A stretch of 64,000 nucleotides of DNA from Eledone cirrhosa (lineage: Eukaryota). Below the pieces are notes generated by a model. That model did no database searches. It was not told the DNA's origin and worked only from the letters and a program-made list of their open reading frames with translations. Below, one piece after another: positions 1,080 through 30,920 of this stretch. Position numbers and translations under genes: made by a program. Each line of letters starts with the position of its first letter. Position 1 is the stretch's first letter. The stretch is from contig OZ024743.1 of the NCBI GenBank assembly GCA_964016885.1, forward strand, positions 5,146,001 to 5,210,000, given 5' to 3'.

Positions 1080-1123
<44 letters not shown>

Positions 1124-1130
<7 letters not shown>

Positions 1131-1318
1131 TGAGATTCTACAGGACTAGAACTGTTTCATTCATTAGAAATCATCAGGAATCTCAGATTCCTGATGATTT
1201 CTAATGAATGAAACAGTTCTAGTCCTGTAGAATCTCATCTATATTAAAACTGTTATACTCTGCTATGTATTGAGTACCTTACTTACTGTGGTTACCTCCG
1301 ATTCAACCCGGAATAACG

Positions 1319-1320
<2 letters not shown>
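1124..1320 (+). mobile_element. (TA)n-flanked foldback element: 60-bp perfect inverted arms (1124-1244) plus ~75-bp unique tail; putative Penelope-like pLTR remnant
   Basis: Perfect palindrome centred on 1184, (TA)n on both sides (~1096-1128, 1319-1347), contains a hammerhead-like motif. The palindrome is seen directly; the PLE assignment is inferred from known pLTR features (hammerhead, inverted truncated end, microsatellite insertion). Confidence 0.6.
1185..1235 (+). ncRNA. Type I hammerhead ribozyme-like motif (mirrored on - strand at 1183-1133)
   Basis: Stem I AGATTC(1185-90)/GAATCT(1230-35); core CTGATGA(1191-97); stem II TTC/GAA with TAAT loop and a non-canonical U-U closing pair; GAAA(1210-13); stem III ACAG/CTGT with 8-nt loop; GUA triplet with predicted cut after 1229. 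Confidence 0.6.
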
Positions 1321-1350
<30 letters not shown>

Positions 1351-6892: not shown

Positions 6893-6954
6893 ATGAAAAG
6901 AAGTTTGAGTGAATCGGAGCAGGATGACGTCTTTGACGACCGAATCAAATCTGG
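6893..6954 (+). CDS. HEY: Hey (Hairy/E(spl)-related with YRPW motif), first coding exon: MKRSLSESEQDDVFDDRIKS(G)
   Basis: ATG at 6893; MKR plus acidic/Ser N-terminus as in Hey proteins; strong donor G|GTAAGT after 6954 (phase 2); possible upstream acceptor ctttcag at 6858. Confidence 0.75.
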
Positions 6955-7314
6955 GTAAGTAGAAAAACAAGCAACAACACCAACACACATACACATATGC
7001 ATACATACCAACATACATACATACATACGTACGTACGTACGTACATACATACATACATACGTACACACTCGCGTGCCGGCATCTATACACTTATAACTAT
7101 ACATAGAGTACCGGATTCGGTTAGTGCGGGGTCTGTAGCATATTCTATAAAAGGGCCCTAAATTATTTTTAAAATATAAGATAAAAGTTAAAGGTATTCT
7201 TAGCGCAGGGAATCCGGAAATTGCGGGGCCCATAGCAAATACTACTTTTGCTATTGTTAGATTAATCAGGTAGTGTATACATATGTTTATATAGGTATAT
7301 GTCATATAAATGAT

Positions 7315-7376
<62 letters not shown>

Positions 7377-7633
7377 ATGCATGCGTATATAGTGGTATAG
7401 GAAATACTCGAAAACACACAATTAAATATGAACACCATTATATGGAGTTGCGATCTTGTATGTCAACAAGAGAACTTCATCCATCGCTAAGTAAACACTG
7501 GGAGGCGAACATTATCGACTAGAATCCATAAACCCTTCACTGTGAAGTCCCAACATGTCTGTATACCAATGACAAAAACCGGTAGGAAAAATAACAATAT
7601 GTGTAATGTGTATATATGTGTGTGTGCGTGTGT

Positions 7634-9224
<1,591 letters not shown>

Positions 9225-9310
9225 GCATGCTGAACAGTTCTTTGCATATGTTATACAATGTATGATATAAGTAAATATACATGAATATGATCCGAGTGAT
9301 GTAAAAACCA

Positions 9311-9783
9311 GTCTCCATGTATCATAGCCTGTCTCCATGTGTCATAGCCTGTCTCCGTGTATCATAGCCTGTCTCCGTGTATCATAGCCTGTCTCCGTGT
9401 ATCATAGCCTGTCTCCGTGTATCATAGCCTGTCTCCGTGTATCATAGCCTGTCTCCGTGTATCATAGCCTGTCTCCATGTGTCATAGCCTGTCTCCATGT
9501 GTCATAGCCTGTCTCCATGTGTCATAGCCTGTCTCCGTGTATCATAGCCTGTCTCCGTGTATCATAGCCTGTCTCCGTGTATCATAGCCTGTCTCCGTGT
9601 ATCATAGCCTGTCTCCGTGTATCATAGCCTGTCTCCGTGTATCATAGCCTGTCTCCGTGTATCATAGCCTGTCTCCGTGTATCATAGCCTGTCTCCATGT
9701 GTCATAGCCTGTCTCCGTGTATCATAGCCTGTCTCCGTGTATCATAGCCTGTCTCCGTGTATCATAGCCTGTCTCCGTGTATC
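9311..9783. repeat. 20-bp minisatellite (GTCTCCGTGTATCATAGCCT), ~23.6 copies
   Basis: Exact 20-bp period, with a variant unit GTCTCCATGTGTCATAGCCT. Confidence 0.98.
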
Positions 9784-9988
9784 GAATGGCAAGAGTGACA
9801 ACTGGTATGGGATTATTGTTGTAAGTCCTTGCTTCTTATACATACAGATAGAGACGAGAAAAGTCTGCTGGTGAATGGCCGGCCATATAGCATCAAAAAA
9901 ACGGTATCCGGTGGGTCGCGTGCACCCGAAGCCCTGCATAGTGTGGGTATATTACGTATGCACATGTAGGCATTCTAGGCCGCCATAC

Positions 9989-10188
9989 NNNNNNNNNNNN
10001 NNNNNNNNNNNNNNNNNNNNNNNNNNNNNNNNNNNNNNNNNNNNNNNNNNNNNNNNNNNNNNNNNNNNNNNNNNNNNNNNNNNNNNNNNNNNNNNNNNNN
10101 NNNNNNNNNNNNNNNNNNNNNNNNNNNNNNNNNNNNNNNNNNNNNNNNNNNNNNNNNNNNNNNNNNNNNNNNNNNNNNNNNNNNNNNN
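9989..10188. other. Assembly gap (200 N)
   Basis: Run of N of round length, probably a scaffolding placeholder of unknown true size. Confidence 0.99.
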
Positions 10189-11092
10189 GAGTTATTAACT
10201 TTCATGACTTTGCTTACTTCACCTATCACCTCGAATATATGACTCTTTGTGTAGCGGTATCTATATAAATACAAGCACACGTAAGCATGCACAAAGGCCC
10301 ACATACACATATACATACTCACTCAAAGACATGTACACACAAACATACACACACATATATATATACATATATTTATTTATATATATATATATATCATATA
10401 CAGCATCAAATAAATTTTGAGCGTTTATTCAAGAGTATCCGCATTCAATATTGTAACTATTTTATCTACCATGCACAATTGACAGCATTCCATGCCATCG
10501 ATATACGGTCTGCATTTTCGTAGATCTTCCATTTTGTTGTGTTCTAAGTTGTTTTCTTTTTATCGCAATATATGTTGCTGATGACTGCTATTTTTTGTGA
10601 CTAAAAGAAACAGTGTGGCTTTCTTATGTTAGTTTAAAATCTGTCTTTTGTAATTCCGACATAGCTATTTTTCGATTCTTGTTCGTGAAGTTAACTTTGG
10701 CTTCATATATCATTGACTTGGTTTTACAACATTGGTTCACTTGACATTAGGTACTCTTAAATTTTTCCTTCGGCGGGTCTAGATATTGGTTTATCTCTAA
10801 AAATAACTGATTTCTTTTTATAAGCCGCAGGTTTACATTCATTTGTATTGTTTTATTTGTATTCAGAAATTCGTTTCGTTTTGTCTTGTTTTCCTGAATA
10901 TGTGCGCGTGTTTGTGTTTGTGTGTTTGTGTGTGTATGTTTTATTTATACAATATGTATTTTGTGCTAATACATATAATATAAGTAACCGTTGTATTTAC
11001 TGAAATCGTTCTATTTTGTATTTGTATTCACATTATAAACACGTACATATCATTAAATAAAGAAATAACAATTATTATTATTGGTTTTTTAG

Positions 11093-11176
11093 ATTATTGA
11101 AAAACGTCGTCGAGACAGAATCAATAACAGTTTGTCAGAGTTGCGGCGCTTGGTACCAACAGCCTTTGAAAAACAG
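11093..11176 (+). CDS. HEY: Hey bHLH exon (basic/helix 1): [28 protein letters not shown]
   Basis: ttttag|ATT...CAG|gtcagt; 84 bp, phase 0-0; near-identical to the Hey-family bHLH. Confidence 0.97.
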
Positions 11177-11540
11177 GTCAGTATTTAAACTTTGTGGTGT
11201 CTTTATCTACAGTGCACTTCTGAACAGATTGCACGATTAAACAGTGTAGTGGTGGTGGTGATGGCGGTGAGGTTAACATAGTATGGATGATGGTGATTTG
11301 GTTAAATAGTAACAGTGGTAGTGATATTGGTGAAATTGTAATAATGGTGGTGATGATGGCGGCGGAGTTAACATTCATAGTATGGATGGTAATGGTGTTG
11401 GTATTGTTGTTGTTGGTGGTGGTGGGGGGGGGGGGGGGGGGTTGTAGCAACACTAAGTGTAGTTTTCTCACTAATACTAATCGATAATAGATGATGATTA
11501 ACCAACCAATAATTTCATCTTGCTTTCCTTTTCTATCCAG

Positions 11541-11613
11541 GGTTCTGCCAAACTCGAAAAAGCCGAAATTCTGCAGATGACAGTCGACCATTTAAAGGTG
11601 CTTCATCAAAAAG
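11541..11613 (+). CDS. HEY: Hey bHLH exon (loop/helix 2): [24 protein letters not shown](G)
   Basis: ttctatccag|GGT...AAAG|gtgcgt; 73 bp, phase 0-1; canonical [16 protein letters not shown]. Confidence 0.97.
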
Positions 11614-11630
11614 GTGCGTAATATATACAA

Positions 11631-11679
<49 letters not shown>

Positions 11680-12099
11680 CTCTCTGTCTCCGGGTCAACT
11701 GTTGCTGTTGTTTTGCCTCTAGATACTCCTGACTGAGCAAACATATCAAATATGTGGCAGTCGTGATCACTCTGTTTTGATGTAGGTGGCTCTATTTATC
11801 TATGACTACATTATGCTTTGTGTCCTACTATTTTAAGATGGTAAGATGTAATTTGTGGGTGATTTGGTTGCTATTCCTATAATAGGTCAAGTGGTTATAT
11901 AGTGACCCCCTCTATATGACATTTGATGTTGTTATTGGTGATGATCATGTTTGTTTATTAATAGCAAATTTATCGCCATCATACTGGCTGCTGGCCAATA
12001 TGCGATGTGTTTAATAAAATGGAATGAGCTGTTGCACATCAGATGAAATCTGCTCATCTTCTCTCTTTCTACCCTACTGCCATTCCACTCTCTTGAAAG

Positions 12100-12240
12100 G
12101 CCAGAATTTGGAGGTGGCAGATTAATTGATTAAATCAACCCCAGTACTTGACAGGTGCTTTATTTTATCAACCTTCGTAGGATAAATGTCAAGGTTGATT
12201 TCGTCGGAAATTTAACTCAAAACTTAAAGAGCCTGAACAT
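12100..12240 (-). mobile_element. Degenerate tRNA-derived SINE fragment in Hey last intron
   Basis: Reverse-complement similarity to 16691-16908 (cagtacttgacaggtgctttattttatcaacc...aaggttgatttcgtcggaaatttaactc). Confidence 0.65.
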
Positions 12241-12295
12241 AAAATGATGATAACTACAATAATAACAATAATAATAATTTCCTTTTTTATTGCAG

Positions 12296-13020
12296 GACTC
12301 AACAGTTACAATTACCCTGACCAACATGCTTTAGCTCTTGATTACCGAATTGTTGGCTTCCGCGAATGTGCCACGGAGGTAGCACGATATTTAGTGACGG
12401 TCGAAGGAATGGATATACAGGAACCATTGCGACTGCGTTTGTTGAGTCACTTACAGTGTTACTGTGCCCAACGAGAAGCAGCAGCGGCTACAAAAACACC
12501 CCACTGGTCTTCTGTAGGTACACACGCCACCATTAACAACCAATACAACGGATCCAATCACATGACATCAGTACCTAACATGATCGGTACGGCATCCACA
12601 CAACATACTGGTCAAAATGAACACCATTTGTCAACGATCAGCCCTAGCCATTCAGGACTTTCAGTGGCAACAAGTGCTGTACCTCCTTCATACAGCGAAG
12701 CTAGAGTCAGTCAACAAACAGAAGCATCAGTGCCTTCATCTAGTTCACTACACAGTCATATGCGACTACCAACTACAGCCCCTGGTGTTGCATCTGCTTC
12801 TCACCAGATGGCATCATTGAATACGTCCGCTCAAATGCAACAAATATCACCGTCCATGCTTCCAACCATGTCTCAGATCAGCCAGTTTCCAGTGTCCTTA
12901 AACTCTTCCATGATGTCTCCGAACAATCACACGTATGGTGGTGGAAACGGAGTTGGGATCAACCAACACGGGCCTGCTGTAAAACCATATCGGCCATGGG
13001 GAACTGAATTGGCTTATTGA
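12296..13020 (+). CDS. HEY: Hey terminal exon: Orange domain (DYRIVGFRECATEVARYL...PLRLRLLSHL), S/H/T-rich tail, C-terminal YRPWGTELAY*
   Basis: ttttattgcag|GA CTC completes the Gly codon in frame with the previous exon. Orange domain and YRPW-GTE motif are diagnostic of Hey. Stop TGA 13018-13020. Confidence 0.97.
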
Positions 13021-24430: not shown

Positions 24431-24730
24431 CCTCTATGACCCTTTCAAACTCCCTCTCTCTTTCTCTGAAAGAAATCAACAGTGTTCAGACCTGGGGAGG
24501 TATAGGCTCTGCAAGGTTTAAAATGCCTCTACAACTCAATCAGGAGTTAGGAATTCATGTATGCAGTAATACCCATTAAATATAGCAGATAATTTTTGTC
24601 GTCTAATGGAGATGGTGGTAGTGTAAGATACAAGGTGGAAAAAATTCAGGGAACTAACAAATGTTGCCAATGAAGGGTTGCTACTTGAAAAAGGCAGACT
24701 GTATGAAGCATATGCAAGGAGTGAAATAGG

Positions 24731-27700
24731 TGGTCATGTAGGTGTCACGTCAAAAAGCACACAGCCTACACTGTATAGTGGTCGTGTAGGAATCACGACA
24801 AAAAGCACCCAGCCTACACTGTATAGTGGTCGTGTAGCAATCACGACAAAAAGCACCCAGCCTACACTGTATAGTGGTCGTGTAGCAATCACGACAAAAA
24901 GCACACAGCCTACACTGTATAGTGGTCGTGTAGCAATCACGACAAAAAGCACCCAGCCTACACTGTATAGTGGTCGTGTAGCAATCACGACAAAAAGCAC
25001 ACAGCCTACACTGTATAGTGGTCGTGTAGCAATCACGACAAAAAGCACACAGCCTACACTGTATAGTGGTCGTGTAGCAATCACGACAAAAAGCACCCAG
25101 TCTACACTGTATAGTGGTCGTGTAGGAATCACGACAAAAAGCACCCAGCCTACACTGTATAGTGGTCGTGTAGCAATCACGACAAAAAGCACCCAGCCTA
25201 CACTGTATAGTGGTCCTGTAGGAATGACGACAAAAAGCACCCAGCCTACACTGTATAGTGGTCGTGTAGCAATCACGACAAAAAACACCCAGCCTACACT
25301 GTATAGTGGTCGTGTAGGAATCACGACAAAAAGCACACAGCCTACACTGTATAGTGGTCGTGTAGCAATCACGACAAAAAGCACCCAGCCTACACTGTAT
25401 AGTGGTCGTGTAGCAATCACGACAAAAAACACCCAGCCTACACTGTATAGTGGTCGTGTAGCAATCACGACAAAAAGCACCCAGCCTACACTGTAAAGTG
25501 GTCGTGTAGCAATCACGACAAAAAGCACCCAGTCTACACTGTAAAGTGGTCGTGTAGCAATCACGACAAAAAGCACCCAGCCTACACTGTATAGTGGTCG
25601 TTTAGCAATCACGACAAAAAACACCCAGCCTACACTGTATAGTGGTCGTGTAGCAATCACGACAAAAAGCATACAGCCTACACTGTATAGTGGTCGTGTA
25701 GCAATCACGACAAAAAGCACCCAGCCTACACTGTATAGTGGTCGTGTAGGAATCACGACAAAAAGCACCCAGCCTACACTGTATAGTGGTCGTGTAGCAA
25801 TCACGACAAAAAGCACCCAGTCTACACTGTAAAGTGGTCGTGTAGCAATCACGACAAAAAGCACCCAGCCTACACTGTATAGTGGTCGTGTAGCAATCAC
25901 GACAAAAAGCACCCAGTCTACACTGTAAAGTGGTCGTGTAGCAATCACGACAAAAAGCACCCAGTCTACACTGTATAGCGGTCATGTAGCAATCACCACA
26001 AAAAGCACCCAGTCTACACTGTAAAGTGGTCCTGTAGGAATGACGACAAAAAGCACCCAGCCTACACTGTATAGTGGTCGTGTAGCAATCACGACAAAAA
26101 GCACCCAGCCTACACTGTATAGTGGTCGTGTAGCAATCACGACAAAAAGCATACAGCCTACACTGTATAGTGGTCGTGTAGGAATCACGACAAAAAGCAC
26201 CCAGTCTACACTGTATAGTGGTCGTGTAGGAATCACGACAAAAAGCACCCAGCCTACACTGTAAAGTGGTCGTATAGCAATCACGACAAAAAGCACCCAG
26301 TCTACACTGTATAGTGGTCGTGTAGCAATCACGACAAAAAGCACCCAGCCTACACTGTATAGTGGTCGTGTAGGAATCACGACAAAAAGCACCCAGACTA
26401 CACTGTAAAGTGGTCGTATAGCAATCGCGACAAAAAGCACCCAGTCTACACTGTAAAGTGGTCGTGTAGCAATCACGACAAAAAGCACCCAGCCTACACT
26501 GTATAGTGGTCGTGTAGCAATCACGACAAAAAGCACCCAGACTACACTGTATAGTGGTCGTGTAGCAATCACGACAAAAAGCACCCAGCCTACACTGTAT
26601 AGTGGTCGTGTAGGAATCACGACAAAAAGCACCCAGCCTACACTGTAAAGTGGTCGTGTAGCAATCACGACAAAAAGCACCCAGTCTACACTGTAAAGTG
26701 GTCGTGTAGCAATCACGACAAAAAGCATACAGCCTACACTGTATAGTGGTCGTGTAGCAATCACGACAAAAAGCACCCAGTCTACACTGTAAAGTGGTCG
26801 TGTAGCAATCACGACAAAAAGCACCCAGTCTACACTGTATAGTGGTCGTGTAGCAATCACGACAAAAAGCACCCAGCCTACACTGTATAGTGGTCGTGTA
26901 GCAATCACGACAAAAAGCACCCAGCCTACACTGTATAGTGGTCGTGTAGGAATCACGACAAAAAGCACCCAGACTACACTGTAAAGTGGTCGTATAGCAA
27001 TCACGACAAAAAGCACCCAGTCTACACTGTAAAGTGGTCGTGTAGCAATCACGACAAAAAGCACCCAGCCTACACTGTATAGTGGTCGTGTAGCAATCAC
27101 GACAAAAAGCACCCAGCCTACACTGTATAGTGGTCGTGTAGCAATCACGACAAAAAGCACCCAGACTACACTGTATAGTGGTCGTGTAGCAATCACGACA
27201 AAAAGCACCCAGCCTACACTGTATAGTGGTCGTGTAGCAATCACGACAAAAAGCATACAGCCTACACTGTATAGTGGTCGTGTAGGAATCACGACAAAAA
27301 GCACCCAGCCTACACTGTAAAGTGGTCGTGTAGCAATCACGACAAAAAGCACCCAGTCTACACTGTAAAGTGGTCGTGTAGCAATCACGACAAAAAGCAT
27401 ACAGCCTACACTGTATAGTGGTCGTGTAGCAATCACGACAAAACGCACCCAGTCTACACTGTAAAGTGGTCGTGTAGCAATCACGACAAAAAGCACCCAG
27501 TCTACACTGTATAGTGGTCGTGTAGGAATCACGACAAAAAGCACCCAGCCTACACTGTATAGTGGTCGTGTAGCAATCACGACAAAAAACACCCAGTCTA
27601 CACTGTAAAGTGGTCGTGTAGCAATCACGACAAAAAGCACCCAGTCTACACTGTATAGCGGTCATGTAGCAATCACGACAAAAAGCACCCAGTCTACACT

Positions 27701-30700
27701 GTAAAGTGGTCCTGTAGGAATGACGACAAAAAGCACCCAGCCTACACTGTATAGTGGTCGTGTAGCAATCACGACAAAAAGCACCCAGCCTACACTGTAT
27801 AGTGGTCGTGTAGCAATCACGACAAAAAGCATACAGCCTACACTGTATAGTGGTCGTGTAGGAATCACGACAAAAAGCACCCAGTCTACACTGTATAGTG
27901 GTCGTGTAGGAATCACGACAAAAAGCACCCAGCCTACACTGTAAAGTGGTCGTATAGCAATCACGACAAAAAGCACCCAGTCTACACTGTATAGTGGTCG
28001 TGTAGCAATCACGACAAAAAGCACCCAGCCTACACTGTATAGTGGTCGTGTAGGAATCACGACAAAAAGCACCCAGACTACACTGTAAAGTGGTCGTATA
28101 GCAATCACGACAAAAAGCACCCAGTCTACACTGTAAAGTGGTCGTGTAGCAATCACGACAAAAAGCACCCAGCCTACACTGTATAGTGGTCGTGTAGCAA
28201 TCACGACAAAAAGCACCCAGACTACACTGTATAGTGGTCGTGTAGCAATCACGACAAAAAGCACCCAGCCTACACTGTATAGTGGTCGTGTAGGAATCAC
28301 GACAAAAAGCACCCAGCCTACACTGTAAAGTGGTCGTGTAGCAATCACGACAAAAAGCACCCAGTCTACACTGTAAAGTGGTCGTGTAGCAATCACGACA
28401 AAAAGCATACAGCCTACACTGTATAGTGGTCGTGTAGCAATCACGACAAAAAGCACCCAGTCTACACTGTAAAGTGGTCGTGTAGCAATCACGACAAAAA
28501 GCACCCAGTCTACACTGTATAGTGGTCGTGTAGCAATCACGACAAAAAGCACCCAGCCTACACTGTATAGTGGTCGTGTAGCAATCACGACAAAAAGCAC
28601 CCAGCCTACACTGTATAGTGGTCGTGTAGGAATCACGACAAAAAGCACCCAGACTACACTGTAAAGTGGTCGTATAGCAATCACGACAAAAAGCACCCAG
28701 TCTACACTGTAAAGTGGTCGTGTAGCAATCACGACAAAAAGCACCCAGCCTACACTGTATAGTGGTCGTGTAGCAATCACGACAAAAAGCACCCAGACTA
28801 CACTGTATAGTGGTCGTGTAGCAATCACGACAAAAAGCACCCAGCCTACACTGTATAGTGGTCGTGTAGCAATCACGACAAAAAGCACCCAGCCTACACT
28901 GTATAGTGGTCGTGTAGCAATCACGACAAAAAGCATACAGCCTACACTGTATAGTGGTCGTGTAGGAATCACGACAAAAAGCACCCAGTCTACACTGTAT
29001 AGTGGTCGTGTAGGAATCACGACAAAAAGCACCCAGCCTACACTGTAAAGTGGTCGTATAGCAATCACGACAAAAAGCACCCAGTCTACACTGTATAGTG
29101 GTCGTGTAGCAATCACGACAAAAAGCACCCAGCCTACACTGTATAGTGGTCGTGTAGGAATCACGACAAAAAGCACCCAGACTACACTGTAAAGTGGTCG
29201 TATAGCAATCACGACAAAAAGCACCCAGTCTACACTGTAAAGTGGTCGTGTAGCAATCACGACAAAAAGCACCCAGCCTACACTGTATAGTGGTCGTGTA
29301 GCAATCACGACAAAAAGCACCCAGACTACACTGTATAGTGGTCGTGTAGCAATCACGACAAAAAGCACCCAGCCTACACTGTATAGTGGTCGTGTAGGAA
29401 TCACGACAAAAAGCACCCAGCCTACACTGTAAAGTGGTCGTGTAGCAATCACGACAAAAAGCACCCAGTCTACACTATAAAGTGGTCGTGTAGCAATCAC
29501 GACAAAAAGCATACAGCCTACACTGTATAGTGGTCGTGTAGCAATCACGACAAAAAGCACCCAGTCTACACTGTAAAGTGGTCGTGTAGCAATCACGACA
29601 AAAAGCACCCAGTCTACACTGTATAGTGGTCGTGTAGCAATCACGACAAAAAGCACCCAGCCTACACTGTATAGTGGTCGTGTAGCAATCACGACAAAAA
29701 GCACCCAGCCTACACTGTATAGTGGTCGTGTAGGAATCACGACAAAAAGCACCCAGACTACACTGTAAAGTGGTCGTATAGCAATCACGACAAAAAGCAC
29801 CCAGTCTACACTGTAAAGTGGTCGTGTAGCAATCACGACAAAAAGCACCCAGCCTACACTGTATAGTGGTCGTGTAGCAATCACGACAAAAAGCACCCAG
29901 ACTACACTGTATAGTGGTCGTGTAGCAATCACGACAAAAAGCACCCAGCCTACACTGTATAGTGGTCGTGTAGCAATCACGACAAAAAGCATACAGCCTA
30001 CACTGTATAGTGGTCGTGTAGGAATCACGACAAAAAGCACCCAGCTTACACTGTAAAGTGGTCGTGTAGCAATCACGACAAAAAGCACCCAGTCTACACT
30101 GTAAAGTGGTCGTGTAGCAATCACGACAAAAAGCATACAGCCTACACTGTATAGTGGTCGTGTAGCAATCACGACAAAACGCACCCAGTCTACACTGTAA
30201 AGTGGTCGTGTAGCAATCACGACAAAAAGCACCCAGTCTACACTGTATAGTGGTCATGTAGCAATCACGACAAAAAGCACCCAGTCTACACTGTAAAGTG
30301 GTCGTGTAGCAATCACGACAAAAAGTACCCAGTCTACACTGTATAGTGGTCGTGTAGCAATCACGACAAAAAGCACCCAGTCTACACTGTAAAGTGGTCC
30401 TGTAGGAATGACGACAAAAAGCACTCAGCCTACACTGTATAGTGGTCGTGTAGCAATCACGACAAAAAGCACCCAGCCTACACTGTATAGTGGTCCTGTA
30501 GGAATGACGACAAAAAGCACCCAGCCTACACTGTAAAGTGGTCGTGTAGCAATCACGACAAAAAGCACCCAGACTACACTGTATAGTGGTCGTGTAGCAA
30601 TCACGACAAAAAGCACCCAGCCTACACTGTATAGTGGTCGTGTAGCAATCACGACAAAAAGCACCCAGCCTACACTGTATAGTGGTCGTGTAGCAATCAC

Positions 30701-30920
30701 GACAAAAAGCACCCAGCCTACACTGTATAGTGGTCGTGTAGCAATCACGACAAAAAGCACCCAGCCTACACTGTATAGTGGTCGTGTAGCAATCACGACA
30801 AAAAGCACCCAGACTACACTGTATAGTGGTCGTGTAGCAATCACGACAAAAAGCACCCAGCCTACACTGTATAGTGGTCGTGTAGCAATCACGACAAAAA
30901 CCACACAGACTACACTGTAA
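24731..30920. repeat. 48-bp minisatellite, ~129 copies, in MRPS28 intron (GTAGCAATCACGACAAAAAGCACCCAGCCTACACTGTATAGTGGTCGT)
   Basis: Strict 48-bp period with point variants only; higher-order offsets of 1680 and 1104 bp. Confidence 0.99.

Follow-up and report, generated by a model that had tools for sequence, protein, structure and literature searches.

A double-hammerhead cassette in Eledone cirrhosa as a probable insertion product of a Hydra-clade Penelope-like element

The palindrome and its hammerhead motifs

The window, i.e. the whole 64,000-nucleotide stretch of Eledone cirrhosa DNA that was analysed, contains a 60-nt inverted repeat whose arms, 1124-1183 and 1185-1244, are 100% complementary (60/60) around a single base, C1184. 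The right arm is extended by a 76-nt tail (1245-1320), and (TA)n was seen at both flanks of the cassette when we looked for a target-site duplication. An earlier note made from the sequence alone had described both the perfect 60-bp palindrome and the tail with a second (TA)n behind it, and both descriptions held. The parts are as follows.

1092..1128, no strand: left (TA)n target tract
1124..1183, minus strand: tail-less arm with the minus-strand hammerhead
1184, no strand: single joint base
1185, plus strand: first base of stem I and predicted transcription start of the parent element, from the TATA spacing in full elements
1185..1235, plus strand: type I hammerhead motif of the Hydra-clade type, predicted to be cut after 1229
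1213..1228, plus strand: helix III, whose 8-nt loop is self-complementary; pairing with a second copy is predicted
1245..1320, plus strand: tail, corresponding to parent-element 5' UTR between two putative reverse-transcription start sites
1319..1347, no strand: right (TA)n target tract

In the right arm the motif consists of stem I (1185-1190/1230-1235), the core at 1191-1197, a 3-bp stem II (1199-1201/1206-1208) flanked by the unpaired U1198 and U1209, GAAA at 1210-1213, stem III (1213-1216/1225-1228) and GUA at 1227-1229. The descriptor search proposed in the earlier note was run, and a type I hammerhead descriptor matched this motif alone, once per strand, in the 64-kb window, confirming the claim of a hammerhead on both arms. 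Of 200 sequences of 24.6 kb simulated under a first-order Markov model, none contained a match as compact. The Infernal-type search proposed alongside gave a different result, as no hammerhead family was among the 49 Rfam matches at E<=10; there were only hairpin-driven miRNA matches. Folding of the 52-nt motif was no more stable than that of shuffles (z 0.63). Because of these two negative results, it is the family that carries the argument for a ribozyme.

Within the family the CUGANGA, GAAA and NUH core and the three helices are present, and the core is invariant save N7 in 16 of 16 aligned variants, which were hand-picked to span the subfamilies. Stem I covaries, with an A-U or C-G pair that is concordant in 97 of the 100 matches listed, and the 16 hand-picked rows show a second covariation from A-U to G-C; since the sequences are related, these are few independent events. 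Stems II and III are invariant, so that covariation neither supports nor refutes them, and the covariation check spoke for stem I only. Variation is concentrated in loop II and at the unconstrained core position. Raw reads from another study likewise showed a highly variable loop II, and two core positions altered in ~4-7% of reads. The U on each side of stem II is unchanged in all 16 aligned variants and, by our own count in File S2 of PMC8557442, such a U-U also occurs in 14 of the 25 Hydra-clade families given there. Judged from these counts the U-U pair is a clade-typical trait and not decay, contrary to the suggestion that it weakens activity.

Helix III with its loop is predicted to be far more stable as a dimer (-12.8 kcal/mol) than as a hairpin (-1.4), and a dimer mode of the hammerhead via helix III is described in PMC4209133. 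The motif is probably a weak ribozyme, dependent on a dimer or on protein. In the predicted fold of the 136-nt RNA the hammerhead does not form, and a read-through RNA is predicted to fold, as had been anticipated, into one long hairpin in which both ribozymes are lost.

A dispersed family and its parent element

Copy numbers were obtained by pattern searches of the 3.0-Gb genome. The exact 26-nt core occurs 4,311 times (control 0), and a looser stem-to-stem pattern 10,749 times, i.e. ~10,700 hammerheads. Pairs arranged head-to-head, their cores no more than 30 nt apart, numbered 900 for the exact subfamily and 4,889 across subfamilies (control 0). Among the 50 pairs listed from the search across subfamilies, none combined arms of two different subfamilies. 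The family is thus multi-copy with its core kept, and what had been interpreted as an inverted truncated end is one of ~4,900 head-to-head cassettes; these sit in (TA)n, in line with the proposed targeting of such tracts.

The ends were scored in 51 cassettes, the first 50 listed of the exact subfamily plus the one in the window. The tail-less arm ended at the equivalent of 1244 in 14 and of 1251 in 30 of the 51 (44/51 at two sites), and the left arm in the window meets (TA)n at the former, the first putative reverse-transcription start site. The tail arm ended at the equivalent of 1320, followed by (TA)n, in 46/51. One cassette had two tails and one had a deletion. Perfect hairpins next to microsatellites are error-prone, and none of this individual's reads was seen to span the whole cassette, which might point to a fold-back artefact of assembly or library. 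The asymmetric, fixed ends and untemplated joints recur, however, at thousands of loci, and 15 raw reads, taken from two runs of a separate study, contain opposite-strand joints at 1186-1191, leaving an artefact next to no probability.

Raw reads on 1185-1319 also showed direct joints that lead from ~1247 to 1185 by way of ~14 nt of upstream sequence, which imply tandem units of ~77 bp with little beyond the hammerhead; such units may explain the strand excess of the pattern matches (6,305 vs 4,444). The 3' end of the element was present in runs labelled as several other organisms (X4-X9), and the hammerhead in run X4 had different letters in loop II and stem I.

In full elements the tail sequence runs on into an ORF. 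At one locus (L040) hammerhead and tail continue into an ORF of 713 aa, followed by a 3.6-kb microsatellite-rich 3' UTR and a second hammerhead with (TA)n; the distance from hammerhead to hammerhead is 5,966 nt, giving an element of ~6 kb. It is from this continuity that the tail is identified as 5' UTR sequence. The product of this single RT/C-terminal GIY-YIG ORF carries YRDD and YIG motifs, and 1,404 of the 8,000 candidates scored against it were homologs at E<=1e-30; in a Pfam search of the ORF the RT was not called, and GIY-YIG was sub-threshold only (E 0.019). Compared with 15 homologs, the protein has the Hydra-defining motifs RWR (RWK in 14/15 homologs), DKT and the CxCX5C linker, and in the C-terminal region both the Hydra-type CxxC and the CxH around conserved E and N. 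The endonuclease has no CCHH, as CxxC is absent between GIY and YIG and two cysteines 8 residues apart are unconserved in the homologs. Assigned by these protein motifs together with the hammerhead and the (TA)n target, the parent is a Hydra-clade EN+ Penelope-like element (PLE). The pLTR, partial tandems, inverted truncated copies and a one-ended tail are all present in the family. The PLE derivation put forward earlier is therefore upheld, by the Hydra motifs and by the linkage to an RT and GIY-YIG ORF found in L040.

The tail continues into the ORF side at 67 places, vs 6,497 tail copies, and of the 30 ORF-linked copies examined, 15 are partial tandems preceded by an upstream 3' UTR. On the minus strand of L040 (1300-4300) the 3' UTR contains ~3 kb of (TA)/(TG) microsatellite, as it does in L031-L036; the element therefore disperses microsatellite and brings along the kind of target that it uses. 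At 83.68-83.69 Mb (L041 and L038) we found twelve head-to-tail units of ~1.08 kb, composed of 3' UTR, TATA, hammerhead and tail with no ORF; by this layout the array is retrozyme-like and derived from the parent element. At another locus (L034, 1926-4832, minus strand) two element arms enclose an ORF that matches RVT_1 weakly (E 3e-4), probably another retroelement nested in the parent.

Joints, fold-back point and a proposed route of insertion

The 51 cassettes have 36 distinct joints, some of which recur 2-4 times, and the joint of the window was found in the same orientation in none of the other sampled cassettes. This bears on the view that the cassette itself moves as a non-autonomous, retrozyme- or SINE-like unit, copied in full from its own transcript. 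Such a unit would account for the high copy number and for the recurring joints, and tandem hammerhead arrays derived from the parent element do exist elsewhere (L041, and the short direct joints in raw reads). The diversity of joints speaks against it, the unmatched joint of the window included, as do the missing TATA box and the long hairpin that a read-through RNA is predicted to form, abolishing both ribozymes. We therefore find a mobile unit highly improbable, and the stand-alone, self-propagating unit of the earlier note was not borne out. As the promoter lies upstream of the part that is copied, the cassette is likely unable to drive its own transcription, and it would probably be an inert product, dead on arrival.

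To locate the fold-back point, we scored the extent of 93 arms 5' of the core, from the first 100 matches (seven were too near a locus edge or of identical context). Forty-two arms reached at most 7 nt, 3 reached 8-18, 9 reached 19-100 and 39 went beyond 100. None of the arms of 55 cassettes (55/55) extended more than 7 nt, though 30 were allowed, and in 9 of the 10 arms that reached 7 nt that base may belong to the partner arm. The fold-back at the stem I edge reported earlier is thus real in position; what had been missed is that, across the arms scored, it is a family-wide hot spot and likely a transcription start.

The distance from a TATA-box promoter to its start is canonically ~30 nt. 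In full elements a TATA motif stands 30 nt (29 nt in subfamily B) ahead of the base that opens stem I and corresponds to 1185, and this box is absent from the cassette. By hand count, with a pattern that allowed 18-34 nt, the spacing was 29-33 nt in 88 of the 89 matches listed, while the spacers differ between subfamilies; in part this spacing reflects shared ancestry.

A second line of evidence comes from bases added at the joints. Untemplated 5' G arises when reverse transcriptase copies the cap. The genomic base before +1 in element copies is C or T; at joints with untemplated inserts, a G precedes the +1 base in 18 of the 20 arms that reach +1, compared with a G share of 16% in other inserted bases (p ~1e-12; 2e-4 against 50%). 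The extra G was seen on tail arms (10/11) as well as on tail-less arms (7/8). An untemplated 5' G is known from L1 insertions (PMC4729875). The joint base 1184 is a G on the minus strand, directly 5' of the first base of the left arm, and may be such a cap-derived G; alternatively, it could belong to the right arm as its templated -1 base. Among 26 arms that stop one base short, the next base was T in 15, G in 9 and C in 2. Possibly, the T reflects a stop before a modified first base and a subsequently added A, and for these arms the cap reading needs this added assumption. Taken together, the TATA spacing and the extra G suggest that the fold-back point likely marks the RNA start of the parent element, at the first base of stem I.

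The hot spot could also be structural, if the reverse transcriptase stops where the cDNA 3' end pairs back through the stem I complement, or at a hammerhead-bound protein, and the G is an ordinary untemplated addition. The stop does follow the stem I edge in all subfamilies, and the third of arms that end one base short with T next would fit. This remains improbable in our judgement, as the G excess is limited to arms reaching +1, the TATA motif and its spacing are kept while the spacer diverges, and 39/93 arms pass the site by >100 nt. The 48/93 arms that go more than 18 nt upstream of the core, past the predicted start, imply that other templates are also used, be it an RNA 3' end, read-through, a multimer or a circle. 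ORF-linked copies starting exactly at +1 numbered 0 of 30.

The two arms of a cassette resemble each other, with 0.27 mismatches per 53 nt within a cassette vs 0.77 between cassettes, and at a polymorphic site the same allele was found on both arms in 55/55 cassettes (44 A/A, 11 T/T). Many joints of the 51 cassettes have overlaps of 1-3 nt. Near-identical arms and short overlaps are what is expected if one cDNA folds back or an antisense RNA primes itself, with the second arm copied from the first, the model proposed for PLE head-to-head palindromes (PMC3846280). In several cassettes both arms bear the extra G, though, joints with 0-1 nt between the arms leave no loop, and in three loci (L032, L042 and L044) the tail-less arm exceeds the tail arm in length and so cannot be a copy of it; self-priming also gives no reason for a joint placed 30 nt from a TATA box. 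The G on both arm types and the longer tail-less arms favour two starts on a sense, capped template, and we hold self-priming to be rather unlikely. Alternatively, the arms could agree because each time a single locus was the source, or because they were homogenised later.

The reading we prefer, and consider probable, is that a Hydra-clade PLE left the cassette as its shortest insertion product, formed by priming at two sites on uncleaved RNA and run-off at the predicted cap. A TATA promoter in the 3' end of an upstream copy would start the RNA at the base equivalent to 1185, and the ORF protein would nick both (TA)n strands. One strand would prime ~15-22 nt beyond the scissile bond (1244/1251) and the other at 1320, the gap between them being the tail. 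Both cDNAs would then run to the cap, after 60-67 and 136 nt, often with a C added opposite the cap, and the two cDNA 3' ends would be joined head-to-head through microhomology or a few untemplated bases. In vitro, the protein of another PLE cuts and extends both strands of AT-rich DNA, using two internal RNA starts whose distance equals the tail and uncleaved RNA as template (PMC11167929).

The RNAs that were copied had probably not been cut by the hammerhead, judging from the scissile bond, which is spanned in 99 of the 100 copies listed. Arms starting at the scissile bond, sought as a sign of cleavage in vivo, were found in 0 of 30 tail-selected arms and in at most 1 of 188 arms in the examined loci, a set mostly core-selected and hence biased. 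The tail was also searched for a conserved structure, and its predicted folding was not better than that of shuffles.

Somewhat speculatively, the hammerhead might be a cap-proximal switch. Uncut, capped RNA would serve a dimeric complex as two-start template, and cutting via helix III would remove a 45-nt capped leader and free a unit-length RNA that circularises and leads to promoter-restoring partial tandems. We offer this only tentatively; were it true, the ~4,900 cassettes would be a natural library of 5' ends, and PLE head-to-head ends would come from a sense, capped template.

Comparison with known elements and neighbouring features

The Hydra clade (Craig et al. 2021, PMC8557442) shares with the Eledone element the RW(K/R), DKT and CxCX5C motifs and CxxC/CxH around E and N, no conserved CCHH, the (TA)n target, inverted 5'-truncated copies, a tail at one end and a canonical hammerhead with U...U flanking stem II. 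The ACAG/CUGU-A helix III is that of Penelope-1_NV and Hydra-1_aMil. On the other hand, the Eledone hammerhead is unlike all 25 of File S2, Hydra-1_oBim included, and has an 8-nt self-complementary loop III; the tail is 69-76 nt vs 30-40, and the thousands of minimal double-hammerhead products set the Eledone element apart from the clade as described there. The element is also ~6 kb vs <3 kb owing to its 3.6-kb microsatellite-rich 3' UTR, so it lies outside the published length for the clade, which as given in that source is descriptive rather than diagnostic.

PAc, a Poseidon element of Anolis (Frangieh et al. 2024, PMC11167929), similarly has two internal RT starts bounding the tail, extends both strands of an AT-rich target and uses uncleaved RNA as template; its starts lie inside the ORF, whereas those of the Eledone element lie in the 5' UTR. 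Transcription start, cap signature and head-to-head joint are not among the sites mapped in the available part of that study. The Penelope elements of Adineta vaga with inverted pLTRs (Arkhipova et al. 2013, PMC3846280) also have head-to-head palindromes at the inverted joint, a one-ended tail and a putative TATA and initiator in the pLTR. Those palindromes were explained by antisense self-priming, while the Eledone data favour a sense capped template and two starts.

Type I hammerheads in the pLTR, with palindromic helix III and low expected monomer activity, are shared with metazoan PLE hammerheads (Cervera and de la Pena 2014, PMC4209133) and non-LTR retrozymes (bioRxiv 10.64898/2026.07.22.740005), and opposite-strand hammerhead pairs 100-700 bp apart are described for Schistosoma in these sources. 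Retrozymes, as described, are head-to-tail tandem units, a layout found in the L041 array, whereas the cassette stands singly and is arranged head-to-head.

Published work thus already covers truncated inverted ends and tails, hammerheads in the pLTR, (TA)n targeting and a putative pLTR TATA (PMC8557442, PMC4209133, PMC3846280). In the literature searched, which included few subscription papers, we found no report of a cap signature or of a start at the first hammerhead base in any PLE. The class of cassette is therefore known, and the family-level evidence on its mechanism, at genome scale, is new. How PLEs form head-to-head ends, and the role of the hammerhead, have been approached through a genomic model that, as published, is antisense, and through one full in vitro system, which shows two internal starts. 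A fold-back point that is an RNA start would help to explain the inverted ends; the family supplies minimal products by the thousand, resolved to the base at the joint and at both ends, and predicts an exact transcription start and the state of the template. The genome also carries thousands of perfect ~60-bp hairpins, which would give double-stranded RNA if read through.

In 0.69 Mb of loci we observed type I hammerheads of at least 7 other, unrelated families, with a palindromic helix III and several as inverted pairs (at L009, L043, L056, L065, L081, L082, L123 and others). A TATA at the same distance was not seen by eye in these families at the loci examined, and the arrangement is therefore not claimed for them.

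The window holds a second head-to-head palindrome at 350-851, with 193-bp arms (99%) and nested inverted pieces around a short (TA)n. This is a different dispersed repeat, with relatives of 85-97% in L052, L139, L156, L157 and L173 that are often inverted too; the descriptor found no hammerhead in it, and it is possibly the end of another Penelope-like family.

When read-through of the cassette from a host gene was sought, we found a Hey-like (hairy/enhancer-of-split related, YRPW) gene on the plus strand at 6893-13020, which starts near 6893 and thus downstream of the cassette. Its exons lie near 11093, 11540 and at 12199-13020, and a second exon was not located. The cassette is probably an inert insertion ~5.6 kb upstream of this gene. 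Satellite arrays are also present in the window, with a 20-bp unit repeated 24 times at 9311-9783, a 48-bp unit repeated 129 times at 24730-30919 and a 29-bp unit repeated 861 times at 37063-61962.
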